Assembly (NCBI RefSeq): GCF_026571515.1
Contig: NW_026864183.1
Coordinates: forward strand, 62,001-126,000
Source: Ruditapes philippinarum
Taxonomy: Eukaryota
DNA length: 64,000 nucleotides
Direction of reading: 5' to 3'
Positions 5,374-60,077 of the stretch are shown here, one piece after another. Each line of letters starts with the position of its first letter. The first letter of the stretch is position 1. The position numbers and the translations under genes were made by a program. Under the pieces are notes generated by a model. That model saw only the letters and a list, made by a program, of their open reading frames with translations. It was not told the DNA's origin and did no database searches.

Positions 5374-8300
5374 ATGGATTCATGTGACATCCTCGTATAC
5401 TGTTTGTCAGGACTGTTGTTTTGTGCGATAATTGCCTGTCTGGCTATGTATTTATGCACCTATACAAAGTAAGTTTATTTTACCTTTATTTCACACCTTA
5501 TTGAAGATAGCCAATTGACTTTCAGTGTTTGAACTGGGTGAAATTCCAATAGAAATCATTTCGGATCCAATTTTATCAATTTGACCTCGGCTAGCGCCTC
5601 GTCCTATATAGATTTTACACAAATGGGGTGCAACGGTGATATATTGCGATACAGTTCATTTTGCGATACATTGATTACATTATGACAAAAAAGAAAAGAA
5701 AATAACAGAAAACTGAAAGTATCTTATTTAATAAAATGAAATTTTATTGTTAAGAACTCTTAATGTAGTGTTAATCAAACTATTAAACCAGATCACAAGA
5801 CAAAAAATATCTTCTACACAAAGACTGATTGACACTGTTATTTGAACAATTTACGTCATCGGAAGTAATGACTTTTATTTTTTCAGTCATTTGCTGATTT
5901 AAATACTACATGTTGATTCCCTTTTTCTCGAGAAATTGTACCAAAAATAGCCATTTCTATCCTATCAAACTCGTCCACTTTATCCATGTTGTAATAGTAT
6001 ACGGAGTATGTAAACATGAACAATGTGACTTAATTTTTTTACTCATTTTTCATGCGCGGCGACTTTGAAGAAAAATTATTATAAATCAGCATAACAAATG
6101 CATCGGTGAGAAAAATCTCAAGTCGGTACCAACTGTTTTAGATTAAACATAATAAGGCGGCATTTCATACAAGTTTCTTTCGAAATACGTAAATGCTTTG
6201 TTTGGGCAAACAGAAACAAATATTATGGAAAATAATCACACCACGAGGATGTTGTATCGTCATATTGTTTCACCTTTATATTACAGCATAGAATATATAA
6301 ATGTACTCATAATGTATATCATAACGTAATATAATCACGGTATCTTTAACAGGACAAGTGGAGCAAAATTAAGAAAGGAATTATTACGAGTTAGAGAGGA
6401 GAACTCACAACTAGAAGATGAACTTAGAAAGGAGACACAGGAAAAGAATGATGCCTTGAAACGGTAATATCAAATTAGATATAATTAAAATCGGTGTTAA
6501 CGTTTTCTGACTTTTATTGGTAAAATCACATTTTTGTCTTTAATTTTTTTCCTTTTAGATAAAACACTGAACATTTGCACGTCTAGAAACAGAAAATTAA
6601 ATGTCTTTAAAATATCGAAGACTTGAAATGAGGATATATTTTTACAGTCTGAGCGCCATTATGTCAAGTCGTTTGAGGGATGAAAACTTTGATATAGCAG
6701 ATCTGAGCGACGGAAATCGTCCAACCAAAGTGGGAGAACAGTTTTCAGAACTTTATGACAATCAATGGACAGATGCATACGATACAACCAAGAATTTCTT
6801 CGAGAATACTATAACAGAACTTGAAATAATTCAAATACTTCTAGAAATAGTAAAGGTCATCTCATTTACATAATATATTTTGGCAATTTGCAACGTTACT
6901 TTATAAGTCTTCTTTATTTGAAATATAATTACATGTACATATTAAATATATTATTTTTTAAATGTGTTAATTAAAACTGACAAGGTAAATTTGTCAAATC
7001 TATGATAAAAAAAATTAACATTTCCCAGTTCAGAAACTAAAAGATGATTTTGATGCAAAATTGCAAGAAATGTGGATAAATATTGATATGAGGTCTTTCC
7101 AGAATAGTTAACACTGATATTGATTTTAAACCAGTTTTTTTTATAAGATTAGAAAATTCCACTTCAAAGACAATAATGACAATAATATCTAACATGCGTT
7201 TATGCCATTATTATTATGTTTTTACATTTGATTATACAAAAATTATAGTCATTTATCTTAGATGTCTTACATGTATTTTGGAGAAAAAAAAACAGGAAAT
7301 TTTAAATACATGTAAATATTGCATACATCTGCATTTTTGTTATTTACCCTGAGGCCCTCTTATCAGCAGGGGACTAGTATAAATACCAATACACAGCATG
7401 ACTTGAGACTGTCCTCTTGTATAAAAGCATTCCCTTTATACATTAAATTTTTAATATAGAAATCTTAAATAAAGTTATCAATTTTATTTATTTCATGCAC
7501 AGATATATAAACTTATATTTAGCTCCATGATTTCTTTGAAAAATTTTAATTATTTATATCTTTAAAAAGTATGCAAGCATTTCATGGTTGAAAAACATAA
7601 TATCACAGTATATGGATTGTTTTAAAATCAATGAATTAATATTCTCTTTCAATCTTGAACATGAGGAATTGCCTCTTAAGTTATATATTATTTTTACACC
7701 GTTAGGATATCGGATTATTATATGTAATATCCAAGTTGGTGTAAAATTAGTTTTGAGATTCTTGTGTCTGTAATAATAAGTAGACAATAATTTAGATCTC
7801 TGGTAGATTTATTTTGTCTCAGTCAATTTAGTATGTGTCTCAAATACAATACAATACATAAAAACATCATTCATAAAGAAATCATACAAGTAATGTATAT
7901 GTATCTGAAATTATCTATATTATAAAAGATTTCATAATTTTACTCATTTCATTTATAACCAATGAAGATAACATATATAGGTTTATTCTATCTACAAAAA
8001 TAAAATAATATTTCTTCGTTATTATTCTAACAAATTATTTAAAGTGGGGAATGGTATTAATTATATATAAGTTACTCGCAAGGCACATGAGAAGTACCGA
8101 AATGTTTTACATGAGATCATGATTTTTTAAACAACAATATTACTAACTAATTGTAACATAAAATTATAAACTTGATAAAAAATCCTATAATTATAAGGAA
8201 CACCTTATTTGACAATTTTAAATTTGGAAGGTATTTACAAAAAACATATCTAAACACATAAGGATGATTAAAATTAAATTATTTCTTAAACATATTTCTA

Positions 8301-11160
8301 GAATACATTTTTCTATAAATTTCAACTTTAAAAAGTATTACAAATCTTAATGTTGTAAAATTACTAAACTGGTATCATATTTAACTCTTAATATGTAAAA
8401 ATATAACAGTTCACTATTTAAACCTAATATGAAATAAAATTACAAAGTTTACAACAAAGTAAGAAATGAAAAATATAACAAATTTAAACAAACAGAAAAT
8501 AACATACCTGTAATAATAAGTAGACAATAATTTAGATCTCTGGCTGATTTATTTTGTCTCAGTCAATTTAGTATGTGACTGCCAGAGTACTGTCCAAGCT
8601 TATATACAGGAGTCTGATATCTGCCAAATACCTTGATGAATAGTCTCAAGTTTCTACTTTGAATTATTTATTAGATTTATGTCACTTTTACTTGTAATTA
8701 CAACAATGTATCTTTCAGAAGTATAGAAAAAGTGGTTTGAGGCAAACATAACATATATTTCTTACACAATAAATATGTTGACAATTACTGACTTGTCTTT
8801 CACATTAAAGTAATTGATGAATGTATGAACCTGTTGCTAAATATTTTGAGAACAATACAATATTGTTTAGTGTGAACTCAACTGTAATTGGAGATAAAGA
8901 AATACTTTCACAAATACTTATTATGTACGAAAGAACTTTGAAAACACACGCCTGCATTGTATGGATTTTAACAAGAAAATGAGTTATAAAAGGAGCCCAT
9001 CAAATGTATATTTTTCTACTTTATAAAATATTTGCTTGACAATTGCGAAATCATAAAATATTATACCAAGCATATTCACACAAGTCCATGTAAGAACATA
9101 AGGTGTAAATCTATAAGTTACACTTTCGATGAGCAGCACTTTATGGGCGTTGAAAGTTTTGAAGTTTGAATCTTCGGACCGTAGGGTCATCAGATTTTGG
9201 CGTCCTGAAATGATTCTTTCCGCTTTGAGTGGGTGCCCGAGTTGTGTTTGCAGTATGTTGTTTTCGTTGTAGAGATCTTGACACAATGTCATCACCCTCC
9301 GCTTGGTTGTTCTTGGTAGATCGTTGACAACATCAGGAAGCCAATGTACACCAAAACGGTGCCGTGTTGCTTATACACATTGCTTATTCATTAGGCTGTC
9401 CAGCTCCATTATCTAAGTAAATTAATGTATAAGACATTTTTTTCTTTCAAAGATTATATTGGCTCTTTTATAAACATGACCTTTCATATGATGATAATGA
9501 CCAGTTTTTAACAATACAATACATTCCATCTCATTTAATTATAACATTATATTCCATTGCAGAGAAATCATAGCTTACTTATTTGTTGAAATAGATTATT
9601 TAAAACAATGAAAATTAAATGACTTCAGAAGAAAAAAACAAGCATTGTACAAAAACAATGTTACAGTTTTAACAAATAGAAATAAAGAGCACACAAGGCA
9701 TGTAGTTTTGTTATGTTATCAGTAAAAAAACTATTCACTTGGTCAAAAACGTTACTTTCGATGTTTGGATCACCGTTTTTATCATACGATTATTTTATAT
9801 TAACTAAATCAATTTAAAATAGTTTGATGTCTAGGTGACCGCAATACATAGGTTGAAACAGATGTGAAAAGCTACATTGATATTTTGTTCTTAAAACACT
9901 TCATTTCAGAGCCACGAAGTATAATTGCTGTTCTAGGCTGACATGTAATGCCTTGCAGATACTTTACCTCTATCACCAAGGGCTTAATATAAACAATGGC
10001 ATCGAGGTCCAAGTTACTTTTTGTTGCAAAGTTAAGTTTTATTTAGACACAACCAACTTATCAAGGGTAGTGACATAAAGAAAAATATTTAACTGTTACA
10101 TTTCAGGAATGTTTTACAGAATGTAAAGACGTATCAATAAACCAGATGGAAAAGTTAAAGGAGAACGTGGCAAATATTACCGTCATTATTACAAAGGTAT
10201 GCTATAATTTACAAATAAGCTATATTTAAAAAAAAACGAATAATGTCATTTTATTCATTTTTGCTTCAAGTTTGAGTTATAAAACACTTTTTCATAAAAA
10301 ATTCTGGAGATCTTCAGACATAAATAAACAAAAGGTTTTGCAAAAGCTCGTTATCATCAAATATTTTTATACAATAAAGCGTAGAAAAACATGTTATTGT
10401 TCATGTTTAAAGACTATTACAGAAATAGAAAAATTTACATTGTTACATTTTAAATAATAAGCCAATGATGATATGAATATTATTCTAGAGTGACAGTCAA
10501 CTTCCGTTTTATCTGATGCAACGTATTAAAATAGAGAGGAAACAATCCGCCCCGAACCACATTCCAGCAGTGGATATGGTTTGTATATTGTTGTCTTGCA
10601 GACACGTTGCATTTTGATTACACATCATCTTTACGCAGTAAGACATTTTGAACTTATTCCTACTGTACACTTATTAATAATTTAAATTTCTCATGATAAG
10701 TAATATGGCTTTTAGACAACAATGATAGTATTTGTTGCAGGCTTTGATAAAGCGAATGAAGCACATTAAGTTTGTTTTAGACATGATTATTATAATATCG
10801 CATTAACACATGTTTCAGATTCTACCTAGGCTGGAGCGGAACTTCTCATCGAAAAACCAAAACCCAAAATTTCTTCATGAGCCTTCTGTTAAAGCATACG
10901 TACAAGAATGTCTGAAACTTTCGTGGTTCATGGTCATACAAGACCCTCCAATGACAATGGTACTTGAACCTGCATCCAATGATTATAAATACTTTAAGGA
11001 GTACAAGAATCGAGGCAAATTTCTTAGTTATATTGTATGGCCAGCTTTGCTTTTACAAGAAGAAGGTGAATTGATATGTAAAGGTGTTGCAGAGTTCACT
11101 AGCACCTCTTCGTCTCTAAATTCAGAAGTGGAACTAAGAGTATATTTTGGATATAATTGA
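5374..11160 (+). CDS. TM-anchored coiled-coil MIEAP(SPATA18)-C-terminal-domain protein, copy A (~311 aa, 6 coding exons)
   Basis: Exons 5374-5468 (MDSCDILVYCLSGLLFCAIIACLAMYLCTYT), 6353-6463 (coiled coil), 6648-6855 (LSAIMSSRLRD..DLSDGNRPTKVGEQFSELYDNQWTDAY), 10107-10196, 10489-10578, 10819-11160 (YVQECLKLSWFMVIQDPPM..YIVWPALLLQEEGELICKGVAEF). All GT-AG, phases compatible, 936 nt open; last-exon motifs resemble the SPATA18 C-terminus as I recall it (FIQEIC..MQALEPPL..VWPAL..KG). Confidence 0.85.
7768..8577. repeat. 70-bp direct repeat (7768-7837 / 8508-8577) flanking a 670-bp AT-rich insert
   Basis: 'ctgtaataataagtagacaataatttagatctctgg..gatttattttgtctcagtcaatttagtatgtg' occurs twice with 2 mismatches. 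Confidence 0.85.
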
Positions 11161-14972: not shown

Positions 14973-17900
14973 ATGGATGTCCGTGATTACATTATTTACT
15001 CAGAGTCAGCTGTGTTGGTTATTGGAATTATTGTAGTGATAATTGAATCCATACGCCAGTGTTTAAGGTACGTATATGAGCCGCGTCACGACAAAACCAA
15101 TAAAATGAGTTTGCGGCCAGCATGGATCAAGACCAGCCTGCGCATCCGCGCAGTCTGACCAGGATCCGTGCTGTTTGCTATCAGTTTCTCTACTTTTTAT
15201 AGGGTCTGTAAGCGAACAGCATGGATCCTTATCAGACTGCGCGGATGCGCAGGCTGGTCTGGATCCATGCTCGTCGCAAACCCACTACGTTGGTTTTGTA
15301 ATGGGGCAGCTCATATTTCTATACTGTTATCCTAAACTCTTATCTCTTTATTTGATGCAACCAAATGCCGTCTGCAGGTTTCGCACTTCAATTTGTCATC
15401 ACTTTCTCAAATGTTCTTGTTTTATAATGTTTTCTTCCTAAAAATGATTTGTAACTGCTTTCGATATAAAAAGCACCATTTTTCACATCAAATAATTATA
15501 AGACTATTATTACATTATCACAGACGTCGCAAGGTGCGCTCTCACGACTTGGAGCGAAACTGTCATGAACGCTGTGCACATATAAATAGGTAAGCATAAC
15601 ACTTATCATGTAATGGTATAATATTGTTTGATTGATAGTCATAGACATGTGCCATGAAAAGTGCTGTTCTTGTGAATCTTTGTATCATATACTAGCTGTT
15701 GCAACCAAACCTGTATTAAGGAAAAATATGGTTTCATGCAGACTATTTTGGGATCTTACAAATGTAACATTTGTGCTTTTTCATCAAATATGTATGACAA
15801 GTGTTTTTTGAATTCAACCTGATTTTCTGTCTGTCAAGTAGCATTTTGTAAATTTGACGTGGATATATTTTGCAATGTAGATGTAAAGGTTACTATACAG
15901 TATAGAAGGTACGATTTATTTTTTAATTTTGAACATGGCATTTCCAAAGCCCTATATTGTTTTATAGATTATTGTTGCAACTATTGGATCATACGCTGCT
16001 GTAAATTATTCTTCATTCCGTTTTAAGGGTAGACAAAATAAATATAAAGCCTGCAAAATTAATTGACAGGCTGGTACCGTAGAGTACATGTATATATATA
16101 TAATTGATCTTATTAGGTTCAATGAAGCTGAATCAGAATGGAAGACGGCGAAGACAATCCTACAAAATAAACTTAAACTAGAGGAAAATGAAAAAAAAGA
16201 TTTTTTAAAACGGTAAACCTTCCTCGCTCTTAAAAATATACAAATGCTTACATTGAATGGGTATTTCCAGCTATTGACTAAGTCTGTTTACTGGCATTAT
16301 AAACAGTATTGTCAAACATCTTTAGTATGTCCTTTTAGAAAACAACCTGTATTGTAAAATATCCATGTTTATTGTACTTCCTCTTTTTTCTGTATGAATA
16401 TGTGAAGTCTTAATTTGACCAAAAACATGGGCAGCGTTTCCTTTTTTATATTAAATTTCAGGAAAGCCTCATTTACATCTTGATATCAACATTATGTCAT
16501 CTAATATTTATTATATTTTTGCATAATTTTTCATAATTTTCATATATTGAAGATATAGAACACTGAATTAAGAAAATATAATTTGATTATTCAATAGATA
16601 TCAAAGAATCAACCAGGTACAAGATGAACTTACAAAGAAAAAAGCTAAGAGGGAATGCGTTATTAAACTACAATCTATTTTCCTTAAAGCTTGAGAAGTT
16701 ACTTGTATTTCATTTATTCAATTATATAATTAGATTGAAATGACGAATAAATACCATAGTCAAGTTATCTTTATTAGGTTTAAAAATGCTGAAGAAGAAT
16801 GGAAAAGACAGATGTTAGGCCTGCACAATGAGCTTACAAAGGAAAAAGAAATTAAAGATGATGCATTGAAAATGTAATTATTATTTTTTGCTTTTAACTA
16901 TTGGTTTATAATGACACCTCTTTCCCAATATTTTAATCTATTGAACTCTTTACCTACGAAAGGAATAAGCGTAATGTAAGATGAGAATATTGAATGTTGA
17001 ATATTATGATTTATTTCAAGATTAACATTTTTTCGTCGGGATTGGAAAATACAATGGTAATTTACTGTTAATGTTGAAAATATTTAGACAGAAAGCAATT
17101 TGTTTCAATAAAATATTCATGAAACAACAGTACTTTATTCCTTTAAGTTTGAGAAATTATATTAACTTATATTTTATTTTATTCAATGATGTATTTAAAA
17201 TGAAACAATGAGCAATTATCATAGTCAAGTTATCCTTGTTAGGTTCAAAGATGCTGAAACAGAATGGAATAGACAGGTGTTAAGCCTACATGATGAACTT
17301 ACAAAGGAGAAAAAAGTTAAAGAAAATGCATTGAAAAGGTCTTCTTAATTTAATATTGAACTTGTCCTGTGTTATACTTGGAGATTTTCCATCATCTATG
17401 TAAGGGATTCATATATCAAACTGTGTAATAACAGCCAACATAATCATGCTTACTGATATAAGTAGTTTACTAAACTAAAGTTGAAATCACGAGGCAAATG
17501 TCTCGTCTTTGAAGAAAGACTTTTGTGCTTTAAACTATTGGTTTTTAATGACGTCCCTTTCCCATTTTTCAAATCTATTGAACTCTTTACCTACGAAAGG
17601 AATAAGCGTAAGGTATGATGAAAATGTTTACGCTATTTACACATGTGATTTATTTAAATAATGATTTTTTTCATCGGGATTGGAAATTACAATGGCATTT
17701 TAATAATAATGTTAATTTTTTTTAGAAAGAAAGTATTTGTTTCAAGAAAATGTTTACAATAACAATCGCTTATTCAATTTTTTTTTCAAAATATGTAAGT
17801 ACAATGATGAAATATAATCGTCATCAATATGATCTAATTAGGATCACTGAAACAGAAGCTGAATGGAGGAATAAGGTGTCAATCCTGCAAGATGAACTTA

Positions 17901-20005
17901 GAAAGGAGGCACTAGAAAAGGACGATGCGTTGAAACGGTAAAATTCATTTTGAAAAAATAACAGCTAAATTGTTGAATAATATTTATATCGATTTGTGAC
18001 TTTTGTCACGTTTAACTTTTCAAGCATTTGTCAAATTACTATATTGTAAATAATTTCAAATTATTTAAGTACATTTTAACATCCTAAGTGTCAAAATGTA
18101 AGTACATTTTTAACAGCCTAAGTGCCATAATGGCGAATCGTTTGAAGGACGGCAACCCTAATGTAGTAGATCTGAGCGACCAAAATCGTCCAGGAAAATT
18201 GGGAGAACAGTTTACTGAACTTTACGACAATCAATGGACGGATGCCTACGGTGCTATAGATGATTTCTTTGGGAAAGCTAAAAGTGAGCCAGAAATTATT
18301 AAGATTCTTGTTGAAATTTTTGAGGTAATTATATGTACTTTCTATTTGATTACTTATTCGTTTTTAATATGTCTAATGTTTTTAGATGTACAATTTCCTA
18401 ATTTATAATAAAATGCACGTTACTCAGTTGCCATCTCTTTACAAAGGAGGTTAGTCTATTAAGTTGAACATGTTTACGCAATGCTTAAATTGATATCATA
18501 CAGTCTGCATCTCCTTTAAAAATAACAGTTATAAAGCCCTCGTCGTCGACAGACCCGACTAGGACAATATTTAAATGTGTCAAAAATATATAACATACCT
18601 TAAGTATCACACATAGGAACATTTGAAAGGAAATGCTACATAACACTGGAATATTTCAGAAATGTTTTACGGAATGCAAAGCTCTATCTGGAAACCAGAT
18701 GGATCAGCTGAATGACAACGTGTCTTGTATTGCTTCTATTATCACAAAGGTACGAGCTATTGAAATTTAAGCTAGTTTTATGCTTTGTTCAGTCCCCGAA
18801 AACTTTAGTATAAACTGAATAAGTGAGTCCAAATTTCGATTACCTTCATATTAAAATATTAAAATGCCAACAGTAATGTCGCCAATATTTATAATACAAT
18901 TGTTTGGTAGTAATCGACAGCTCGTGGACATACGACAACAAAAACAAGAGAAATAAACAAAAATAATCATAATGATAATCTTTCATTTTTTCTTTTGGCA
19001 CATTTTAGTTACCAATCTCGGAACTTTCTGACGGTATTAATAAAAAATCAAAGGTATTTAAGTACAAATATGCGTCAAACGAAAAAGAATAGAAATGGAG
19101 CTCAATCTTCTATAGAATTCTGACATTATCTACTTCTTCGATTTTTTTATTAGATAATGCTGTTATCTAAAATGCTGAGTTAGGTTGGAAGGGAGGGAAG
19201 ACGTAAACCATTCATTCTTCTAACCCAAAATACAAAATGACCGAAGATGAACTTTGTAACATTATCACTAAATATAAAATTTAACATAATGAACTCGGGT
19301 ATTACAACTATTATTCCAGAAAGACAACAATCTTCCAACCGATCTAATGCAGCGCATAAAAGAAGAAAGGAAAGCGTTTGCCGTTGACGAGGTTCCAGAT
19401 TTAACAGTGGTAAGTAAAATTTATATATCTCTATAATCATAGTCGAGTAACATTTATCTTGGTCAGTGACATATATCTTTAAATCTTAAGATTATCAGAG
19501 TAAATTTTAATGAAATACCTCTAGCATTTAACGAGACATGCACTCTCATTGATATCATAAACTAAATTTTATGCCGACGGCAATCCTTAGTAAGATAGCC
19601 CCTACTTTCCTTTAAAAAGTTGAGCTACATATTACATTATTCAAAGATATGTTAGCGTTTTTTACCCCTTTTGCACATAAACAGCAGGTTTAAAAATTAT
19701 TGGTGTTCCAGATTCTGCCTACTCTCAAAACGAGTTTCTCATCGAAAAACCAAGAAGTTGGATTGCTTGATGAACAGCATCTTATTGTGTATATCAAAGA
19801 ATGCCTGAAGCTTTCGTGGTTAATGGTTATACAAGACCCACCAATGGCTATAGTACTTAAACCTGAAACCGATACATATGAAAACTTTAAAGCATACAAG
19901 ACTAGAGGCAAATTTTTAAAATATATAGTATGGCCAGCGTTGCTTCTGATGGAAGGAGGTCCATTGGTAACGAAAGGTGTTGCGGAATTTACTTCAGAAA
20001 CATGA
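14973..20005 (+). CDS. TM-anchored coiled-coil MIEAP-domain protein, copy B (~408 aa if all 10 exons are used)
   Basis: Exons 14973-15067 (TM), 15524-15589, four 96-nt coiled-coil exons 16117-16212, 16778-16873, 17243-17338, 17842-17937, then 18117-18324, 18660-18749, 19320-19409, 19712-20005; the TM exon and head exons (95/208/90/90 nt) match copy A in size; 1227 nt open. Confidence 0.85.
15074..15316. mobile_element. Palindromic MITE (~240 bp)
   Basis: Arms atatgagccg..aaaaccaa..cagcatggatcaagaccagcctgcgcatccgcgcagtctga are the reverse complement of tcagactgcgcggatgcgcaggctggtctggatccatgct..ttggtttt..gctcatat; decayed relatives at ~42.8, ~45.85 and ~53.2 kb. Confidence 0.85.
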
Positions 20006-22112: not shown

Positions 22113-25100
22113 ATGGAAACCATTGATTGTATCATTTACACGTTGTCGGCGGTTCTTAGCATTGAGATAATTGCACTTGCGTTTGTATTCATAAGTATTC
22201 GTACTGGGTATGTATCTTCATAAAATATGATAAACGTTTGAAATATAACCGTTTCGTTAATCATCTTAAAAATATTTGTCAGTAGTTTGTTTAATAAATT
22301 TCAAATTAGAATTTTTTACACACCTGTACCTTGGTTTTCATCATAAATATTGCACTTTTCCAATTAATCTAGATGTTTATCATAAATATTAAATAACGTA
22401 TTCTGACTAAGAAATATCATAAATTTACAAAATGAAAATCAAGCAAGCAGACAGGAGAAAAAGCAAAATTAAAAAGCCCAAACTAGTCAAAACTTGAATA
22501 CAATCAGAAAGGTGCTACTAGCCTAGCTCACAATGTTAGACCCCTTATAAATAATACCTTTATTTACAATGGATGAACACTTCTAGAATTTCAGTCTAAC
22601 ACCTTTAAACACATTTGAAATTTGAATAAACAAATAAGTAACGGGATACACAGGGCGACATACGTGACCTAAGCTATTTGAAGCGCTATAAATTCTTAAA
22701 CGTTATTTTGTTTTTGAGAAGAAAATATGCTACACCAAGATTTCTTATCAATTTACGAAAATCAGTAGAATTTAATATATGCAATGTATCATAACTTAAC
22801 AAATGGCAATAAGTGTGTTAATTGTATCAAATATAAACCTTATTTCGCTTATTACTTAAGTGTTTCCCCATTCTTTATATTTGTTTGTTTATATCATTTC
22901 TAGATTCAAGAAAGATAAAAAAGAATTGGAAAGGCAAATATTTCACCTGCAAGCTGAACTTATCAAGGAAAAACAAGAGCTTGACCATGCCTTGAAACGG
23001 TTAAGATAATTTATGCTACCCTGTTTAAAACTGAATTTAATATTTGTATTCATAAGAAAGGTTAAGTTCCCACTTGAACTTTTAATATAAAAATAACATT
23101 TAATTTGTTTTTTTTTGTTTTTTAACTTATATGGCCAATTGTCCAATTTCGTAGTAATTGCCTAGCAGACCCCTAAAAAGTAATATTTACCCTTTTTAAA
23201 ACAAAGTCTTATGTTTAAAGATAAAGAAGAGCTTCAAAAAGCACTTTTCTCTTAAAATTCGAATTCAGACTTAAATTTTACGTACATGTACTTTAATGTT
23301 CCTCTTCTTAGTTATGTTAGTTACTGCATTAGCACCAAAACTGACCCTCTCTGACGTCACTCCATACATTTAAATACATCGTATTGACTTTCGAGTCACT
23401 CTGAATTAGGAATAACAAAAGCTAATATCAAGAGCGTGACATTGCCAAATTGTTTGCTACAGTATTGTGTAAATCATACTCTTGGCATTCCATTTTAATT
23501 ACTTTTGTTACATATTGATTAATCTTTTAAAACTCCTGTCAATTTTGAAACTAAAAGGGTTATACATTTTATGTAACATAACCTTATTTTGTCAACTTCC
23601 AAGGGTACAATTTATCTTTGTAGGGGTATTTAATTTCCAAAACATTTACCTTTTTACCTTTTACATGGCCTAGAGCCCACTATAAGCACTGTCATCACAA
23701 CGTCGATAGGCTACTGTTTTTAACCTTTGAAACGTTTGGCCTATAATTTTTATGTTTATGCTGTCTATTTGAGCAGAAAAAAACAAGTTTTTATATCTCC
23801 CTTCATAAACAAGCACTATGTGTCTTTGAAAAAGCACCAAAGCTGTACATCATTATTACTCTTAAATGTTATTGTATTATGTAAGATAGGTATTGAATTA
23901 TTATTTTTTTACAAGATTTATATCAGCATGCATGATGAATAATCAATCATTCGTGAAATAATAATTACAATAACCTTAATAGGGCTTCAAAAGCAGAAGC
24001 TGAATTAACGAGAGAGAAGATACGCAAACAGGAGAACATAGAACAAGAAGATGCCTTAAGACAAACAGCAAGCCTACAAGAAGAACTTCAGAGGGAGATT
24101 TCAAAGAAAGAAAATGCATTAAGACTGATAACACGCTTACAAGAAATAATTAGAAGGGAGAATTTAGAAAAAGAGAATGCCTTGAGACAGAGAGCATATC
24201 TAAAAGAGGAGCTTACAATAGAGAATATAGCGAAAGAAAACGCCTTAAGACAGAATGCACGCCTGCAAGAAGAACTAAAACAGGAAAGGTTAGAGAAAGA
24301 AGATGCATTATTACAGATAGCACGCCTGCAAGAAAAAAATAGAGGGGAAAATGTATAAAAAATGCCTTAAAACGGTAAAAGTTTTATTTATGCTATATAG
24401 TTTTATCGATATTTGATTATTAATACTTAATAACTAATGTAATTCAACTTATCTTACATCTTAATAGTGAAAATAATTAAAATAATTTATTACTAATTCC
24501 TTATTTCACAAGGTATATTATTCCAAACATTCATGGTCATTAGAAAGTTGTTATGAATAATGGTTGGTTTTGATGTTTTCAAATGTCATGATGAGAGATT
24601 GCTCTAAGTACGTTATTTGTTACTTATAAGAAGTATTAATATTAATACGTATAAACAATAGAAATGTATAATTTGGATATTCTTACAAAATATGTCTTGC
24701 AAAAGTTAAATAGACTTCTCCGTGATTTAGTATGAACATTTATATGATAAAAATAATATTTTATGCTAGAACAGTTTATTTTCTGCGATACGAAGATATA
24801 TAAAGTCGAATCATGTATCGTATACTTATCAACAATATCCATATATATTTTTTATGGGCCTTCTCACTTAGGAAGTTAATATTTCTTTAAAATATCATGA
24901 AACTGTATTTGTAAAACTTAAAAGTTTCAGTTGGGAAAATAACGGGCTTTTGAAAAGTATTATTCTTGCTGCTTTTGTTGCAGCAATACATTCAAAAGAG
25001 ATCAGATTTAGCACCATTTTCCCCAAATATAGCAACAATAGTATAAAAAAAATCACTTCATGTATAAGAGAATTATAAAAATAAAACTATAAAAGCAGTG

Positions 25101-25984
25101 TACTACAGTTTATGTTTCCACATTACTTATCTTTATGGAATATCCATTTAAATGCCCATCAACATAACGGCACGAGATGACATGTGACATGTCCGTGATC
25201 TTAGAGTTTTTGTAAAAAAAAGTATAATATATGTATAGGTATTGCCGACTGCTCTATAAAATCATTGATTGGTATGTCTATGGATTTGTTTATTATCTGT
25301 TTTTTTGTGGGCAATGACGGTTATGCGTGGCTTAATAATGTGTTTTTGACATATAGTTAGAATATGGTAGAATAAAATGTTCTCTCACTTAAACTTTTGA
25401 AGGTGTATTCAAATTTGGGCCGATTTGACTTTAAATGGGCCGTTTTAACATGAAGTAAATTTGTCCAGAGGTGGATTTGACCGTAATCCTATGGACGATA
25501 TGAAGTTTCGTATAGGCTATCCGAAGCGTTTAATGAGATATGCTTGTCCTATGCAAATCTTCAACTGTCCATGACAGTGCTGATAAGGATGTCCAAGAAT
25601 GCTTTGCAAAGTTGAACCAAATACCACATCACTTCAAAATATTATAACGTCTCTTTATACCTACACACAGTAAAAGCATGTTTCAAATGATATTTCAGGT
25701 CAGATTTCGCCTTCATTGAAGAGGTCTTTCTTATCGAAAACCAGGATCAAAGATTTTCTCGTTATGTGTATACAAAGGAATGTCTGAAACTACCGTGGTT
25801 TATGGGGATACAAGAACAACCAAATGAAATAGTACTTGAACCTAAAGCCGATTCTTATGACAATGTTTAGGCATACAAGACAAAAAAGCAAATCATTTGA
25901 GTATATTGTATGGCCAGTGATGTTTCTAGTGGAAGTAGGTCCATTGATAATGGAGATGTTGAAGAGATTGATTCAGAAACATGA
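22113..25984 (+). pseudogene. MIEAP-domain paralogue copy C: truncated or pseudogenised (TM + coiled coil intact to a stop at 24356-24358)
   Basis: Exons 22113-22207 (METIDCIIYTLSAVLSIEIIALAFVFISIRTG), 22904-22999 (96 nt), 23983-24374 (63-bp repeats, TAA at 24356, 4 nt short of frame). No 208/90/90-nt exons found. Frameshifted last-exon relic at ~25704-25984 (KECLKLPWFMGIQEQP; FEYIVWPVMFLVEVGPLI). Confidence 0.8.
24046..24374 (+). repeat. Coding 63-bp (21-aa, three-heptad) tandem repeat, ~5 units
   Basis: DALRQTASLQEELQREISKKE / NALRLITRLQEIIRRENLEKE / NALRQRAYLKEELTIENIAKE / NALRQNARLQEELKQERLEKE / DALLQIARLQEKNRGENV*. Confidence 0.9.
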
Positions 25985-27999
25985 CGAAGAACTGTTGTTA
26001 GAAAAGATATATTGTCGCGGTATATAAGTTTTGTAGTGCATGCGAATCAATTGAAATGGAAAGATAAAACTTTCTCTTTAAAGTTAAAAAGGGCATATGT
26101 TTAAGAGTAATGTGAATATTTAGACATTGAAGAGACTTAAAATATGAAGAAGGCACAATTTAAACGTTATGATATAATGCTAAGCTTAAAATATAACGTT
26201 GCATTAACATACTATTGGAGATTCTTTGAAGTCTTGATAATTTCGTCAAAAGTATTGAATGAAACAATAGTAATAAAATAAAACAACTGTTATAAATAAT
26301 CAATCATTTCATTTTCTGAACTAAAATTATAAAAAAAACTAAAACTTATAGTCAATAAGCACGTAATTGTTTACAAAGCTTTATTTTTGTTATTCATTAT
26401 ATTTCAAGAAAATGTCGGCTGACCAAGTTTCAAAGTTTATATGAATTTCTCCAAGTGTCGGTTAGTAAAAGACCTTTTATGACCTATTTTTCTTAACATG
26501 CGTTTGAAGATAAAAAATGTGTATTATTTTTAATTATCATTGATATAAAGTAAGATTGTTAGATTCGCGTGACATGTAGGTTGGTTTTCAACTTCTCACA
26601 GCTTAAAAAACATCCAGGATATATGCAAGTGCGACAGTAAAAAGACAACGCTCTATAAATTAATCCCACGCTTTTATGCCATTCACCAAATAAGAAAGTG
26701 AAAGGTAAAATATTTGATGGAAACCTTTAAAATTGCCCAACACGACAAAATTAGGTATTTTATAGGTACGGTTTATTTGAACCTGTTCTTGTATATGCAA
26801 TGTATCCCCCAAACCAATAGCACCGTATGAAGCAATTTCAGAAAATTACGTATGAAAATTAAGCTATTTAGATGTGCTCAGATTTGTTCAGATTCGTTCA
26901 AAGGCAGTGATCATATCGCATTTAATGTAAGCCTTATCTTGAAGTAACATAGTTTAATTAAACGAAAATTAATGTTTCTTTGAAGTAAATATGCAAAACA
27001 GTAAACTGCTTGTAAAAAAATGGTAATCAAAAGATAACATAAAGTTATAGGCTTTGATATTGAAATTTCACTGGTTTGCAATAAAACAGATATATCGGTT
27101 ACGTTCAACAAATGAAATAATTGAGCGTCTGTTAAATACATATAACCATTTTGGAAATTAAAAGAAAATGTGAAAATTTATTTAAGAGTAAAAAACCAGC
27201 TTTTTATGGTGTGTTAACATGCTGTATACGTTGTAGCTAAATTAAGAGATACGGGATTTGACAAATTTAAGTCAAATCATACAATGTTGAAAGGTTTAAG
27301 ATAATAACATAAATCAGTTAACATTAAAGCATGTTTATGTTTACATATGATTTGATACTCTTGTTTTATCATATCAATTATCTACATTAGTTTTGCTGTT
27401 CGAAAACGAAAGAGGAATTAAATCAATTTTGTTATATATGTAGTAGGTGGTCAGCAACTTTTTTTTAGTGAAACAGACATATATGTAAGTTTATGTATCT
27501 TAAAATTTAAGTTACAGAATAATTTTTAATTCTATTAAATACATAAAAAAAATGAATACTTTCATGGGAAGTTATATTATCATTGTGTACACCTTCTTAG
27601 CTCAATATTGAAAGAATCTACATTTTGTAATTTTGTTATCATAACTTGTGTTAAAATCGGCGCAAAAATGTTTTTTTATAAAATAAGAAAATAATAATAA
27701 TAAAAAGAAAAAGAAAAGAAATACACAATGTTATAATAAATATTATCTTATTATTTAAGATAAAACATTTTTCAAAAGTTTGTTAAAACTATGACCATTT
27801 CATCACTTCTTTTGTTTTTGTATAAGCCCCCAGGAAGAGTTCAGATATTGTTAATTTACAAATCAATGCCTTCACAAACTTCATCTGACCAAAGAAAACG
27901 GCACGTGACTGCAAAATGAAGGGTACTGAAACTACGCAATATAAAAATGTTTTGTTTTGTTTTGTTTTTTGTTAATAAATGTCTTTTTTTGTGACAAAA

Positions 28000-30748: not shown

Positions 30749-33700
30749 ATGGATCATTGTGCTGGACCCATTTACCTTGAATCAGTATGGTTGATGGCAT
30801 TCATTTTTGTATCAATCATTGCAATATGTACGTTGAAGAGGTGAGTGTTCTTATGTATCGCATAGTATTTTTAATGTCCGAGAAGCTCTTTAAATAAATG
30901 ATTGTGAAATTCATTGTACTCATTTTCCCACTGTACGAGGGGTGTTCAAATATGTATGCAACTAGGCCAATATCTTGCTTTTAACCAGGCTTTACATGTA
31001 TCGTATGGATGGTTGTATAAGCTCTCAATTTATACAATACATAAGTAAGTCAGCTCAGTAGCTTTGACAATAGCTCGATTAACGCTATCTACTCGTGTAT
31101 ACTAAAGCTAAAATGGTTGGGAAAAGGTCTCATTTCACTGACCAAATATGGTCCTACATCAAGATACGCTGTATTCTTGGTATACATGCGAAATATATAT
31201 TTAACAATAAACTTTCTTTTTCCATCTGTCACACGGTGGTGTAAAAAAATTAAAAGTAGTGTGAATTCAGTAAAATATACACCTCATGCACGCCGTTCGA
31301 AAACTGCAACTTCGCCAAAAATGGTTGAACATGTAAAGGATTTGATTGCTACTGATGCAAGATTTACAACTAGCTATATAGCCAAATGCATTGGTATCTA
31401 CCGTAGGAGCCGCTCATAAATTCTCAAACGTCATTTAAATATGTGAAGGATAAATGCCAGATGGATACCCCTAACAAAAACGCAAAAACTTGCTCGGGTA
31501 AGAACCTCCAAACAATTGTTGAAACAGTTCCCTAAATACAACAATCGATCTTTCGCAAATATCATCACTGGCGATGAGACGTGGATTCACTTTTATGAGC
31601 CCAAGCGAAAGATACATAACACAATATGGGCAACCAATTGAAGTAAGAGACCTTGACAAGCAAAACACACCATTAACTTTACCAAATTGCAGTACCAAAG
31701 GGTAAATCTGAAAATGGCAAGTTTTACAAAGTCAAGGTCCTTCATAAATTAAAGAAATATTTCAAAAGCCGTCGACCAGCAACTGGTCACCATGGTGTCA
31801 GGTTGTTGCATGACAATGCTTCGTCACACAAAGCGGCCATTAAGCGGCCATTGTAAGAGAAATTCTGAATCAGAAAAAGGTTGTCGAGCTTCGTTACCCT
31901 CCTAATTCGCCAGATCTTTTCCCTTTGTGACTTTTTCCTATTTCCGAGGCTCAAAAACACCTTGCTGGAAGAAAATATCAAACGCAAAAAAATCTCGGTT
32001 CGGCTATTTTCCAGTGTCTGAAAAATATACCTCGACATGATTATGAAAACGCATTTAAAAACTGGATAAAAAGACTTAAACTTTGTATATCACATTGTGG
32101 TGAGCATTTTAAATGATTGAGATAATTTATTTTGGCTCTTTGTTAAGCACTTCTGAAAATTGAACAGTTGCATTGATATTTGAACACCCTTCGTATATTT
32201 TAATTTTTGTTTAATTGTAAGTTAAACAGATAAAGTATTTTTTCAGCCTCAGATGCTACACGCTAGTTTTCAAAAAATGGTTAAAGTTAAGCAGTAGACC
32301 ACAGTGTTTATTACCGGTGATATCGAGCACATCAGAAGAGTACGAGGAATTGCGCAGTCCGGCATGTTGTGATGCAAGAGAGAGGTAAGCTTACATTGAT
32401 GATAAAAATTTTGATAGTTTCTTCGGTACGCAATCTGCTTTGATCATATTGTATGTTTACATCAATATTAGGATTGTATCAGTAGTACATGTATAAGAAA
32501 TAAGTATATTTTTATGTACGGAATATTATGTGTATGGACAAAAAATATGTAAATGATGTTTTTTTCACTTCATAAACTCTTTTTATTAAAAAGTTTCAAA
32601 AAAAAAATCTATTTGTGATACTAGTATGTGATAAGATTGTGATATGTGATTAGTGATTACATGCCTAAAAAATTAATCCGAATATAAACTGGCATCACTA
32701 TCGAATTAACTTTAGACTCCATGAAGATAACATAAAATGGATGAGTGAGATGTCAAGCCTACAAGATGAATTAAGGAAGAAGGACGATGCCTTGAAACAG
32801 TAATTAATTACACTTTTACCCCGCTAGTATCCCGCTTAAGTTATGTAGTGGAAATTGATTGTTTTACATAATTGACATTAGAATTTTGATATCAAACATC
32901 TTTATTCAAATAACTTGTAGTTTAGAATTTTGTCATACCGGGCAGATGGATATGCGACCGGTGTATGCTAGCCTAAAGGTAAGTCATTATATCATTGTTA
33001 TTCCATAGAGAGTTGAGCCCGGAACATTTATGCTGATGCTTCAACACTCATGATATATTCATCGGTCGATTGTATCTTTTTTGTATTGATTGCAGGTTTA
33101 AATTTATATGCATGTTACAATCACTATTTGTTCAATGACCCGTTACAAAATGTTTAAATACCGACGAAATTCTAAAAATAAAATGGCTTAAATAAGATAA
33201 ATTAAACAAACAAAAATGCAGCCGTAAGATCAAGGATTTGGACGGTTCCAGAGATGTTATATTTCTAATACTTAAAGATCGTTCAGCACCACAATATTGT
33301 TTTGTTTGTGGTATTTTGATTTTAACTATTTGGTATTTTCTTGTTGGGTGGCTACAATATTAATTCCTACTTGAATAATGTTTAATCATCCTTAAGATAT
33401 GTTGCCTGCTTTTTAATTTTGTCTATTGATGTCTTATCTATGATATGCAGGTTTTATTACCTTTTACCCCTTTTTCAAAATTTCGCGTTTAAGCCACACG
33501 TATTCTTAGAAAATACTTGGGGACTATATGCAACTTTTCATGGAATGACACAAATAATAGTGTCACATTGAAGATATCATTATTACCGCCATATAAACGC
33601 GGATGTTTCTAAAACCAAAATAGTAATATGTTCATGTTTATATGTTGAATTCTGCTTAAGCTTGTGCTAGGTTGTGTGGACGGAAGCTTGTAGATACCAC

Positions 33701-33865
33701 TATCGTTCCTGACCAGGCTCGATCAAATTGAGTCTGTAACATTTCCATTTTGCCGTTTATCTTTATTTGTAATATACATGCACCTGCATATATCGTCAAA
33801 CATATTTTACTGGCACAAGAGGCCTGAAGGTTATTTGTTACAGTTAATAAGTGCAGTAACTTTCA

Positions 33866-33897
<32 letters not shown>

Positions 33898-36800
33898 AAT
33901 TGATTGATTGTTTGAAAAGATTGATTGATTGATTGATTGATTGAAGAAAATGACTTAATATTATACTCAAATTAATTTTATGAGGTTCAAGGAAGCTGAA
34001 GCAGACTGGAAGAGAAATATGTCACGTTTACAAGATGAACTTACAAATGAACAACAACAGAAGGAGGATGCCTTAAAACGGTAAAGCCCTGTTTCGAACT
34101 TGGTATGTCCATTCACAGATGAGGAATTTAACATACAAATTCACTTTCATGTCTCGGTTATGGCCACTTTCGTTTTAAACACTGTCATAAAACATTTATA
34201 AAGGTTTAAACGACTCAGATTATAATATGAACAGTACATTCTGAGAAGCAAGTCTTATATTGGAAATATACTATGGATTGTCAATTTCTACATAAGTAAG
34301 GCGGTTGGTTGAAATGTATCAAGGGAACGTGTTAATGAGTTCAACTGACGCCTGATTTTCTCATCTGGCAACATTACTCATAAGTTCCAGGAAGCGGATT
34401 GGGAGTTGCTTTTAATACGACTGAGCTTGAATGAATATGTTCTAAGTAATTTGTACATGAATTTCAACTGTTTTTCATTTTACAAAGACTAGATAGATAT
34501 ATGGTTACAAGAAGGATGAATGTTTCCGGACAATTTGCAGTAGATTAATTTCTAAATTGATTAAATAGAAATGTCATTGTTTTTCCAGACTAAGTGCGAT
34601 AATGTCGAGCCGTTTAAGGGACGGTAATCCTAACGTAGCAGATCTTAACGATCAAAATCGTCCAACCAAAGTGGGGGAACAGTTTTCAGAACTTTACGAC
34701 AATCAATGGACAGATGCTTATGGTGCTATCAACATTTTTTTCGGGAATTCTTTAGCAGAGAGTCAGATAATCCAGATTCTTCTAGAAATTTTAGAGGTTG
34801 TTTTATACTTTTTACCAACGTGTCTTTTAATCCTTTTAGATTATTCTTATTATCAAGATGGTTTTAAGTCTCTCAAACATTGTTAAGTCATGTAGCGACA
34901 ATTCATGGTTTTTTGGTCGAGGAACATCTCAAATGTCAATAATGCGTTATTTCCTGGAGAAGAGGACACCTAGGAATAACAACTGGCCTGTGGCAATACT
35001 TAAATGGAAGAATCCAAAGTCCCTGTTGAGATTCAAACCTATAGTTATTTCTTAAATCAATGATTGATATCATATGAAATTTGTTTGACTATTGTCAAGA
35101 ATGTCTACATGTATATAATCCAGTGTAAACATACCAATTATATAATAACATAAAATCTGACCCAATAAATAATATGAAAAGGCGCAAAATCGTCTTTACT
35201 GCATAATTACATTAATTAGTGTTATCATGGACTCAACGACTTAGAACTAAAGGAAAATACGTTAAATAAATGTAAAATAAAACTGATATAAACTTGGACA
35301 TTTCAGCATTGTTATACAGAATGTAAAATCATATCAGAAGACCAGATGCACCAACTCAATAACAACGTGGCAAGTATTGCGGATGTTATTACAAGGGTAA
35401 GTACTGTTAAATAGTCGCAAAAAATCCTACTGTTGTCTATATTAAATGATTTATTTCCAATACAAATGAAATATTTAAGGATTAGTGCAATATTGAATTG
35501 AATTGAGATTTTAAATTCTGTTCTTAAAAATAGTTGTTTTTTCAGCTGTCATGTGTATTTCTTCTGTAGTTAAACTTTGGTTTCAAGATTGATTGACCAA
35601 AACCATGAAAATAATTCCAACATAATTCATAATTCATTCACGTCTTTCTACGTGACTGTGAACTGTCATAAAAAATGTTTCAATATTATCCTATCAATAC
35701 CTAAACACTGTATCGACAAAGGGAGGCACGTGACCTGTATAGGGGGACTGCACAGTGTTTATGAACATATTTAATCTTGCTACAAATTTCTTATTTAACA
35801 TATATGGTGTTATACTGACAAATAATGTTATGTATTAACTCCTATTACAGAACAGACAATACAAATTGATAATTATTAAACTCTTACTTTAAAAATGAAA
35901 GATAGTACATTTTTACACATCACAGTAATTGCTTGTCAGTTAAGGCTAAAATAAAACAATTTTGTTACTTTATTCAAGAGATTATAGTGTAAAAATACAA
36001 CAAATTCTGTCAATACCCACTTCAAAATAGACTGGTAGTCCTGTAAAATCTAAATATAAACAATTAAATATGATTACTTTTAAACAATAGAGAAAAAAAG
36101 AAACCCCAAAGAAAGCCCAACACGACAAAATTGAAATTGTTGCAGGCTCGGTTTGATTGAACTGAACAAGTGCAAACTACCGTCCTCGCCCCCTCGCAAC
36201 GGCTTCAGCAGGAACTGGTACAATTTTGAATTTAAAAACATCCGCAGATGTGTTCATATGGTGATTATCATGGAACCTTCAACACATAAGTGCCATTCCA
36301 CGAAAAGCGGCATATGGTCCCCAAATAAAATATATGTGTGCCCTGAACTAAAAAACAATGGGCGGAACTAAATAAAATGAAATTTTGAAAGGGGATCAGA
36401 GGTTATGAAGCCTGCATATCACAGATAAGACGTCAAAAAACAAATTTAAAAACAGACCACATATCCAAAGGGGGTTTCAACATTATTAAAGTGAGGAAAA
36501 CTGGAACCACCCAACAAAAAAATAAGACCATTTATTTTTGGAAAGAATCAGGTGATCATCGCCAATACCAAGTTATTAACATTATTAAATTTGTTCAGGG
36601 CATTTCCTAATAACAGATTTTAATGACTACAAAGTAGACAGAAAACTTGCAGCATCTGCAATATCTATCTATTTGCCTGGACAACATTATCTAAGGGGAA
36701 AGCCATATACAAGGTGCCATCATAAAGGTGATAACACTCATCATCTGGGAGAGAGGAAAGAGTGCATGCCAGGAATCAATTGGACTACAGTAGGACTCAT

Positions 36801-37968
36801 TCTGTTTTAGCAATAACATTTCTTAGCTTTAACTCCATAATAATTCTAAAATTGTACATTAAGTTTTTAGATTAGGCTTTCAAATAATAATTGTTCTTTC
36901 TTTTCATCTGTCCTAGAACTGCTTGTACTCACATATTAAAATAAATGTCAACATCAAAATTTTGTTGAACAAATGTTTTACTTACACTTATGAAATTGAA
37001 CACTTTCATTAATTAATCAATAAATATTTAGCCCCCAGATTTAAAATTTCATTATATTCAATCTCTACCAAAATGTTTAAAACATGGACCATTTTCATTT
37101 TTCTCTTACTTATTTCTTGACAAGATATTTTCTTTAAAAATTTGACTCATGAATTTAGAAAGCAAAATTTGAAGGTATGTACAGATCTTTAAGAGTATGG
37201 CCAACTTACCTCCTAGAGTCACGTGGTTTGTCGATACAGTGTATAGAAACCTTTGGAAAGTTTTACATGCTAACCCTAAATTATCATAAAACATTAAGTT
37301 AAGGCTATTAAATTCAGAAAACAAATATATGATTGAAATTCATAATACTATTTCAGAAACACAACAGACTTCGGACTGATCTGATGCAACGCATAAAAGA
37401 AGAAAGGAAAATGTTTGCTCTCGATCAGGTTCCAGTATTAGAATCGGTCTGTATTAATGACATCTATCTAATGAAAATGGTTGTCTTTACTGCTGTGTTT
37501 AATGCTAATGATATACAGACATTTTGGTTCAAAGTTTTAATAATATAAAAAAGCATAACTTTTAAAGTCTGTTACATTGTTTGAATAATTATAGTGATCA
37601 ATTGAGATTCAATATATTGTGTATTCATGACAATAAAAAAGAAACAAAGTTTAAATATCATTTCAGATCCTACGCAGTCTTAAGAGTAAATTTTCTTCGA
37701 AATACCAGGACCAGAGATTTCAAGATGATCCGATTATTATAACGTTTGTACAGGAGTGTTTGAAGCTATCGTGGCTGATGGTTACACAAGACCCACCCAT
37801 GGCAATTATTCTAAAAAAACCCGAAGCGAGTTTTAATAATTTAAGCCATAAACAAAACTTTGAGGAAGTGTTTTAAGCTAATTTTTTGGCCCGGGGGCTG
37901 CTTTTTAAAAGGGCGGAGGGGGATTAATTAACGAAGGGGGGCCCGAGGTTTTTAATTTTAAAAAAATG
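30749..37968 (+). CDS. TM-anchored coiled-coil MIEAP-domain protein, copy D (end of last exon garbled)
   Basis: Exons 30749-30840 (MDHCAGPIYLESVWLMAFIFVSIIAICTLK), 32247-32384, 32716-32799, 33985-34080, 34589-34796, 35307-35396, 37357-37446, 37667-~37968 (FVQECLKLSWLMVTQDPPMA, then homopolymer-rich, stop-laden sequence still alignable to VWPALL..KG). Confidence 0.75.
30936..32193 (+). mobile_element. Full-length decayed mariner transposon (1258 bp, TA TSD) in intron 1 of copy D
   Basis: TA|CGAGGGGTGTTCAAATATGTATGCAACT ... AGTTGCATTGATATTTGAACACCCTTCG|TA; fragmented transposase motifs ARWIP, IITGDETWIHFYEP, LLHDNASSH, PPNSPDL..CDFFLFPRLK with stops and frameshifts. Confidence 0.92.
33867..33943. 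repeat. (GATT)n microsatellite
   Basis: Two adjacent GATT runs just upstream of a copy-D exon. Confidence 0.95.
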
Positions 37969-57960: not shown

Positions 57961-60077
57961 TCCCATAAAAATGATTTCAAATAATTTCATTCTGCTTTTT
58001 GGTAAAATAGTGATGAGTTAACCAAAATGGGGACAAATGGACTGGTTTAGGATGATTTGAACAAATATAGGGGACAAGTTGAACTGTTGACCAAAACAAT
58101 GTCAAGTGGGAAAAATTGACCTTAGGACAAGTTGGTCTGACAACTAAACAGTGAAGTTTTTAACCAAATTATTTAGAATCATTCTGTAAAATAGAGTTTA
58201 TGTGAAACAAAGTTTCTAAATCAGTGATCGGGGCCAAATTGTAATAAATGTGATCATATGAGATAAAAAACTACAAAAAACACCTTTTGAAAGTTAATTA
58301 GTAAAAGTCTTCGTTTAAAACAAAAACAAGTAATTCCATCAATTTTTTTATATTAAATGTTCAATTAATAACCTAAATTTGCCAAATATGCAGCAGACAT
58401 GCAGTTGCATACATGTACATGTGAAATCCCAGCGGGATTTAAAAAAGTCCTGATATTTTGATCCTGATCCCGATTCCCTATATTAAACATGAAAATCCTG
58501 ATGTTCGTCTCACTGTAAAAATCAGTTGTCACATGTATGCAGTTAATTTATCATCTTGACTTAGAATTACTTTCCTTTTGTTGATCAAATGATCATGCCG
58601 GAACCATTGAACTTTAGATGAAAGAATAATAAACTAGAAGTAAAGCATGTTATCACAGAGTTATGTTAAAAAAAGTAATAAAAGTCTTTGGTTTTATGCT
58701 TTTATTTTGTAAGATATTTTTTCATTTATCATGTTTATTCCAAACATAGATCTGCCTCAAGTGTTCAAACAACACCTGTAGAATATCATGTTACTCAATC
58801 AATTTTTCATCCCATCTCATCCCCATAATCCCATCCATCTTCCATCCAATTGTACATTGACCAACCTTAAATTACATCCACTTGTTAATCCGCACTAAAG
58901 AAAAGAAATACATGTAGAGGGTCATCTTACTAAGCAGAACAAAAGAGAACAATATTACAATTAAGTTTATTCCAATATTCCAAAACAAAAGAATAAGGGG
59001 CCAATTGCATTCTTTTAAACAAAAGAAAGCAATAAAAGAAATGGTTGCATATTTCATTCAATCAATGTTTGTGCTGTTATTAGTGAAACATGTATCTGAA
59101 TTGCATCAGAATATTTGTGTTCAACAGTTACCATAATAAATCACAGTTTTAAGCATGAGTCTTAAGTCATGTACTATTTAGAAGTCCATGGGTCAATGGT
59201 TGTCAACCACAGTCAGATACACTAGCTTCCATTGTTCAATATTTCAATGGCGCAAGCCAACAACCTTCAATAGACTGCATTTATTCTCTTACATGGATAT
59301 TTAATATTGATGCCATAATGCATTTTCTTCGTGTTGCACCAGATTTGAATTTGGTTTTAGTGCTTTTGATTGTCCCTAACCCCCACTTATCCAAAAAGCA
59401 GTTTTTATAGAATTTTTTGCTACCAGTTAAGATAGAAATAACAGTCAAAATAGCATGTTGAGCATGTATAGATGACTTTTTCACATTACATGTACATGTA
59501 CATTAATCATGTGTTCAAAAGTAGACAAAACAATCATGTGTTCAAGAGTAGACAAAACATTTTTTTTTTTTTTTCAACAAATTATTTTATCCTAAACAGT
59601 TCTGTTACTATTGTATGAGAAATTTCTGTATTCATGACAAGTAATTGAAAAATAACTTTGGCTAAGATTAATTACTAGTTCAGATATTTTTCTCATTAAA
59701 AATATTAATATTTGTGCTTTAAAAAAGTATAAAATAAACAAATGTTTGGAGACAGTGGAAGTGTGCTGCTTTAACTAATGTGACTTTCCTGAGCATTATA
59801 TTTTTTATTGTTAAAGTGTATAAAGCTATTTTTGGTTTCTTTTGTGATTAAAATGATTATAAATATGGAATATCTAGAATGAAAGAAATTTATTAAAAGG
59901 TAGCGGACATGCGTGAAATAATTGACAAACCTACTAAAAATAGCCAACGTTTAATTATTTTTATACACTTAAGGTTATTTAATTTTAAATTATTACAATT
60001 TTTACTTTTAATTTATCAAAGAATTAATGGTATATTTTATTTATTTTTTGTGTGTTTTTTAGGTTAGTGTATAAAGA

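Follow-up and report, generated by a model that had tools for sequence, protein, structure and literature searches.

Four tandem frame-neutral 96-nt exons, spliced in series, likely give a clam Mieap-like protein a fixed, longer helical stalk

A 64,000-nucleotide (nt) stretch of the Ruditapes philippinarum genome (contig NW_026864183.1, positions 62,001–126,000 of the forward strand; hereafter the window) carries several paralogous genes, one of which, copy B, contains four consecutive 96-nt exons that encode a predicted coiled-coil stalk. The question raised by this locus is whether these exons are skipped in a regulated manner, so that one gene makes rods of several lengths, as the initial annotation of the sequence proposed, or whether all four are spliced in together. 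The copy B gene lies at 14973–20005 (+ strand) and comprises 10 exons; its open model of 408 amino acids (aa) is identical at 408/408 residues to the RefSeq protein P0001 (LOC132724769, Ruditapes philippinarum). Its parts are the following.

14973–15067, + strand: exon 1, with the start codon and a hydrophobic segment (predicted single membrane anchor), ending in phase 2
15524–15589, + strand: exon 2, 66 nt, phase 2/2, encoding a basic RRRK motif and then a Cys/His-rich linker
16117–16212, + strand: stalk exon B1, 96 nt, phase 2/2, donor GTAAAC
16598–16669, + strand: decayed stalk-exon copy of only 72 nt, acceptor retained, donor lost, not spliced in
16778–16873, + strand: stalk exon B2, 96 nt, donor GTAATT
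17243–17338, + strand: stalk exon B3, 96 nt, weak donor GTCTTC, which is used
17842–17937, + strand: stalk exon B4, 96 nt, donor GTAAAA, occupying the place of the paralogues' single stalk exon
18117–18324, 18660–18749, 19320–19409 and 19712–20005, + strand: four core exons, encoding the MIEAP domain

Exons B1 to B4 are each exactly 96 nt long, flanked by AG and GT and in phase 2 at both ends; coordinates, lengths, phases and all four donors are just as first annotated. Exon pairs share 57–79 of 96 nt and 11–21 of 31 aa, and the homology of adjacent stalk exons is beyond chance (tblastn cross-matches down to an expect value, E, of 6e-9).

To follow the splicing of these exons, four raw-read runs and four contig sets were mapped, out of 24 runs listed, 20 of which cover part of the stretch. 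Contig sets X1, X2 and X20, which come from three studies, were taken as RNA because they contain GT..AG joints, and X15 was taken as DNA because it has no such joints and covers introns. The joints from exon 2 to B1, B2 to B3, B3 to B4 and B4 to the core are present in all three RNA sets, and the B3–B4 joint (17338>17842) shows that the B3 donor is in use. The B1–B2 joint, which bypasses the decayed copy, is present in two of the three; the third has a loose end at the start of B2 that resembles a variant 3′ end of B1. The joint table of these contig sets, from which rare forms drop out, has 14 rows with no sign of being cut short, and none of the 10 possible skip joints is among them. A second protein, P0008, deduced from a contig of 1378 nt, so short that it must be a spliced transcript, spans the full 408 residues without a gap and differs at 13 of them. 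Nor are the copies mutually exclusive, as the three joints between successive stalk exons are seen and P0008 includes all four. RefSeq holds one protein only for this gene, and no shorter near-identical protein was found among 105 matches of 224–714 aa. Inclusion of all four exons is the main form and the only assembled path. The length tuning by isoform that had been proposed for copy B does not find support in the three RNA sets, whereas minor or tissue-specific skipping may still occur. Since the four exons are spliced in together in every RNA set that covers the gene, we consider it likely that B1 to B4, tandem duplicates of an ancestral frame-neutral stalk exon, permanently lengthen the helical rod that links a predicted membrane anchor to the MIEAP head.

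The predicted protein agrees with such an architecture. P0001 consists, in order, of a hydrophobic N-terminus (hydropathy 2.41 over 19 residues from residue 6), RRRK, a linker, four 32-residue units and the MIEAP domain (PF16026), which spans residues 207–402 (E 2e-19, 70.8 bits against a gathering cut-off of 27, profile positions 2–193 of 195) and scores above cut-off in P0001 and in 90/90 aligned relatives. The structure model shows one helix at residues 80–192 (mean predicted local distance difference test score, pLDDT, 85.9), and the hydrophobic period of the stalk is 3.57, near 32/9, so that the stalk has the long amphipathic helix and the period of a coiled coil. The initial proposal that a helical stalk separates the hydrophobic N-terminus from the head domain, and that its length differs among paralogues, is supported. 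One unit adds 4.75 nm at 0.1485 nm per residue, and the rod is predicted to measure about 19 nm in copy B versus about 5.5 nm in copy A, the neighbouring paralogue. Each 32-residue unit would contribute nine core positions to a coiled coil, as four heptads and one stutter, and adding a unit would therefore leave the register of the helix unchanged. Two rods probably pair in parallel, and they would face the cytosol because basic residues follow the hydrophobic segment.

As to the origin of the array, self-comparison gave two matches, 16662–16875 with 17119–17340 (77.9%, E 1e-43) and, within introns, 16884–17117 with 17521–17754 (79.7%, E 3e-51). Aligned end to end, 16662–17117 is repeated at 17119–17754 with 80% identity and about 180 extra letters directly after the GT of B3.

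16662–17117, + strand: duplication unit 1, about 456 nt, with upstream intron, B2 and downstream intron, the intron parts 79–81% identical to unit 2
17119–17754, + strand: duplication unit 2, with B3 and the extra ~180 nt right behind the donor GT
17341–17520, + strand: stretch present in unit 2 only, a likely insertion replacing the donor from +3 onward, with a single genome match

The intron duplication first noticed at 16887–17130 and 17520–17760 is therefore real, but its upstream half had been missed and B2/B3 is the only pair that shares alignable flanking introns; other pairs do not exceed shuffled sequences, the upstream intron of B3/B4 being marginal (p 0.01). As the introns around B1 and B4 can no longer be aligned, those duplications are older. 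Between B2 and B3 intron divergence is 0.22–0.24, and the exons show nonsynonymous divergence (dN) of 0.16 versus synonymous divergence (dS) of 0.40, over few sites. Sequence comparison thus supports a tandem duplication of exon plus intron as the source of B2 and B3. Unequal crossing-over, the route originally suggested, fits, but the comparison does not set it apart from other routes of tandem duplication. Neither the duplicated intron nor the 180-nt insert appears to be a dispersed element, with only two and one genome matches, respectively, in a search that skips common words. The decayed fifth exon proposed at about 16600–16670 is recognizable by its similarity to B3 and to stalk exon D2 of copy D, another paralogue (better than 1000/1000 shuffles in both cases), and it has lost its donor, but it does not resemble B1 more than shuffled sequences do (p 0.175). 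The donor of B2 resembles those of other copies, which suggests that the extra stretch of unit 2 was an insertion that created GTCTTC; the odd B3 donor would then be an insertion scar that leaks as intron retention.

In each of the three RNA sets, contigs of low depth extend over the intron behind that donor, at 17339–17841 (depths of 10 and 5.8 in X1, 13.2 and 6.7 in X2, and 2.7 and 2.8 in X20). This is the sole intron so covered in X1; X2 and X20 cover other introns too. Because the intron-cover records overlap exons by fewer than 31 letters they were not counted as bridging. This cover behind a weak donor hints at intron retention rather than at skipping. Read-through past the B3 donor meets a stop after two further residues; a retained intron would yield an anchor-plus-stalk protein without head, or a target of nonsense-mediated decay. 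A further X2 joint, 17097>17650, was discarded and attributed to a short shared repeat: its shorter side has 21 letters, it is of the AT..AT type and its loose ends are foreign.

Several observations weigh against a fixed rod. B1 is modelled at low confidence, with a break at residues 72–79. Contigs lose rare forms, so minor skipping could stay hidden, and the contigs holding the mid-stalk joints are shallower than the flanking ones in X1 (24–38 vs 96–98) and X2 (35–55 vs 69–81), the depth being level in X20 (80–86 vs 85–103); contig depth cannot rank the parts of one gene, and partial skipping would give the same dip. The contig sets mapped, four of the 20 runs that cover part of the stretch, come without tissue assignment, and the raw-read runs gave no cover of the stalk exons: X23 and X24, read to ~6% and ~12%, cover 8/30 and 4/30 bins, nearly all on a repeat in intron 1, which also took up the listed part of the raw-read joint table (549 further rows lie beyond it). 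Lastly, RefSeq isoforms lacking 22–56 stalk residues exist in 4/10 multi-isoform genes of the family. One is LOC132753897 (G000:C7154:48493–50902, minus strand), with three tandem 66-nt phase-2/2 stalk exons, two of which are near twins; isoform X2 is missing one of this pair, and so is isoform X3. The others are three genes of other bivalves, with isoforms lacking 28, 42 or 56 stalk residues. This comparison is one of database models, from genes chosen for having isoforms.

Regulated skipping of four cassette exons at copy B draws on those isoforms and on the depth dip in two of the three RNA sets, as well as on the fact that every subset of the exons keeps the reading frame, as first claimed, and on the poor match of stalk donors to the 9-letter consensus (4–6/9, B3 having 4/9, versus 6–7/9 for the remaining donors of the gene). 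We nevertheless judge it unlikely, since skip joints are missing from the three RNA sets although intron-cover contigs survived there at depths of 3–13, and the gene has a single RefSeq protein and one full-length transcript contig. Symmetry and donor variety, which had been offered as signs of skipping, do not serve as such. Ten of the 110 proteins that we collected map to the examined regions and represent eight distinct genes plus two variants of B; in all eight genes the exon before the core is in phase 2/2, measures 66–123 nt and ends in a KDDALKR-like motif. The symmetry is therefore ancestral, and lets duplicates survive without being evidence of skipping. Likewise, GTC donors (GTCATC and GTCACC) serve an unskippable core exon in two paralogues, A and P0004, so that donor variety carries no such information. 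A splice-tuned stalk stays alive at the level of the family, where LOC132753897 is the best candidate and a better place to look than copy B.

That the number of units differs between individuals through unequal crossing-over, tuning length allele by allele, would be in keeping with the presence of a tandem unit at 80% identity, and two X15 contigs do run, at 17134, near the boundary of the duplication units, into 121 letters absent from the examined stretch, an unexplained loose end that could represent another haplotype. It is, though, very unlikely: units 20% apart recombine poorly, the DNA set X15 has the four stalk exons in order with no joint that removes or adds a unit, the three RNA sets and P0008 have four as well, and no second haplotype of the array was found in the assembly. 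Variation in exon copy number, which the initial annotation had named as a point to check, was thus not seen in this one DNA set. A depth dip over B2–B3 in runs X21 and X22 was discarded as copy-number evidence, as it coincides with a GATC-free stretch (16106–17831). These two runs, although labelled RNA-Seq, cover introns and break at GATC, as proximity-ligation DNA libraries do.

A much stronger competitor, to which we give somewhat less than an even chance, is tolerated drift, in which local duplication within a large family with fast turnover yields extra units that are close to neutral, and the length of the stalk has no tuned role. One copy is dead, one donor is damaged and copy C is a gene fragment; identity between B2 and B3 is little higher in the exons (82%) than in their introns (79–81%); all but one of six RNA-contig variants checked in B1, B2 and B4 alter an amino acid; and one family protein has 130 scored matches in the R. 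philippinarum genome. An apparent special conservation of the stalk, none of the 13 P0008 substitutions falling in residues 54–243, did not hold up, as B1, B2 and B4 are altered in other RNA alleles. Against drift, exact length, frame and core pattern are preserved in each of the four units despite ~20–40% DNA divergence, and dN is below dS in five of six B–B exon pairs. Their preservation shows selection for an intact helix and not for its length, so that drift is compatible with the anatomy favoured here. Under the fixed-rod reading, stalk length would be set gene by gene through birth and death of exons (a fifth copy having died here) and not transcript by transcript.

The same exon has been amplified elsewhere in the family. 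Independent stalk-exon duplications are found in LOC132753897 (3 × 66 nt) and in P0025 (2 × 105 nt), and in Mercenaria P0024 the motif recurs four times at a 48-residue spacing. A strongly hydrophobic N-terminus is present in 10/101 family proteins, which group with P0016 in a clade holding exactly these 11 of the 90 proteins in the tree (FastTree support 0.999), with names from Ruditapes, Mercenaria and Mactra. We found no paper that treats the copy B locus, a Mieap clade with a membrane anchor or a Mieap–GrpE link, in a search that leaves out most subscription journals and supplements, which may list these genes.

Copy B can be set beside several known systems. With the bivalve Mieap-like family, in which orthogroup OG24 has 807 genes, 53.1 per bivalve versus 0.6 in other molluscs (PMC8382680), it shares PF16026, tandem clusters and a coiled-coil-like N-terminal region; a clade with hydrophobic N-terminus and a stalk of whole-exon repeats are not part of the description in the available portions of that paper. 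With vertebrate Mieap/SPATA18 it shares a C-terminal MIEAP domain behind coiled-coil segments (PMC10845071). Human Mieap is described in the same source as having disordered regions around two coiled coils and forming mitochondrial condensates, whereas for the clam protein an anchor in a membrane and a single uninterrupted helix of repeats are predicted. By the accounts in PMC10845071 and PMC8382680, a role in mitochondrial quality control, induction by p53 and a mitochondrial location are known only from vertebrate Mieap. Tandemly duplicated exons that are spliced in a mutually exclusive way are likewise homologous and of the same length, but in copy B the exons are joined in series, not swapped; according to PMC9741552, exons are often duplicated in tandem, whereas it is uncommon for the copies to be spliced in a mutually exclusive way.

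For the head, GrpE nucleotide-exchange factors (PF01025; 1dkg, 4ani, 3a6m), with the architecture given in PMC12987570, were used as comparison system. The MIEAP domain might be a GrpE-fold module that has diverged far, and the Mieap-like proteins of bivalves might act as dimeric co-chaperones of Hsp70, perhaps of the co-expanded Hsp70s; a Venerida clade would be membrane-tied, and the duplicated frame-neutral exon would add stutter-bearing coiled-coil units setting stalk reach or melting, from one gene to the next at this locus and through exon skipping in some sister genes. We hold this to be distinctly improbable. The single GrpE sequence match is weak (E 0.008) and lies in the coiled-coil stretch of one protein of 10; hhalign gave probabilities of 0.1–6% against a shallow GrpE profile; and the profile comparison, at 11.5 versus a block-shuffled mean of 15.2, was no better than controls. 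GrpE is absent from the 25 families shown for 90 members, and atlas searches returned plant GIL1_IRKI_C, Mucoromycota, ciliate and bacterial look-alikes and no GrpE cluster. Foldseek with the head domain gave no match at E 0.001 in the PDB or viral libraries, full-length fold searches gave generic coiled coils only, and no sequence relative with a solved structure was found.

The paralogues in and beside the window differ in their stalk exons. A fifth one, whose stalk exon measures 123 nt, is found a short way upstream of the window; those inside the window are listed below.

5374–11160, + strand: copy A (P0003, 311 aa), with a single stalk exon of 111 nt at 6353–6463
22113–26000, + strand: copy C, a gene fragment with anchor exon, 96-nt exon (22904–22999), exon 23983–24374 and a broken last exon
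30749–37990, + strand: copy D, stalk exons of 84 nt (32716–32799) and 96 nt (33985–34080), last exon broken in the assembly

The numbers of stalk exons first annotated for A (one), B (four) and D (two) hold, although the exon of A measures 111 nt and those of D 84 and 96 nt. Copy C does have two, a 96-nt exon and one amplified by a 63-nt internal repeat, but the latter ends in a stop and core exons are missing. Judged from its sequence, 22113–24374 could still encode a headless protein with an anchor and a long coiled coil built of the 63-nt repeats. The last exon of copy D becomes homopolymer-rich and frame-broken at 37667–38000, which may reflect a fault of the assembly; X2 has an RNA loose end that resembles D. 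Intron 1 of copy D includes, at 31100–32110 of the window, a broken frame that looks by eye like a remnant of a mariner-type transposase. Intron 1 of copy B contains, at 15073–15316, a very high-copy palindromic repeat resembling a miniature inverted-repeat transposable element, with read depths from hundreds to >12,000 and opposite-strand joints, separate from the stalk exons. An open frame of 393 aa at 60075–61256 of the window, with ankyrin repeats and a G-patch domain, is unrelated to the cluster.

Were the GrpE resemblance true, the MIEAP domain, also that of human SPATA18, would gain a biochemical function open to testing, and two of the largest gene expansions of bivalves would be connected. 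The analysis also marks out a membrane-anchored clade absent from the papers searched. That a symmetric exon was the one amplified is useful to know and not surprising, as symmetric exons are those able to be duplicated. Copy B and its relatives offer a clean, well-dated case in which one frame-neutral exon was repeatedly duplicated (4 × 96, 3 × 66 and 2 × 105 nt), altering stalk length across a large and functionally unexplained family of bivalve proteins.
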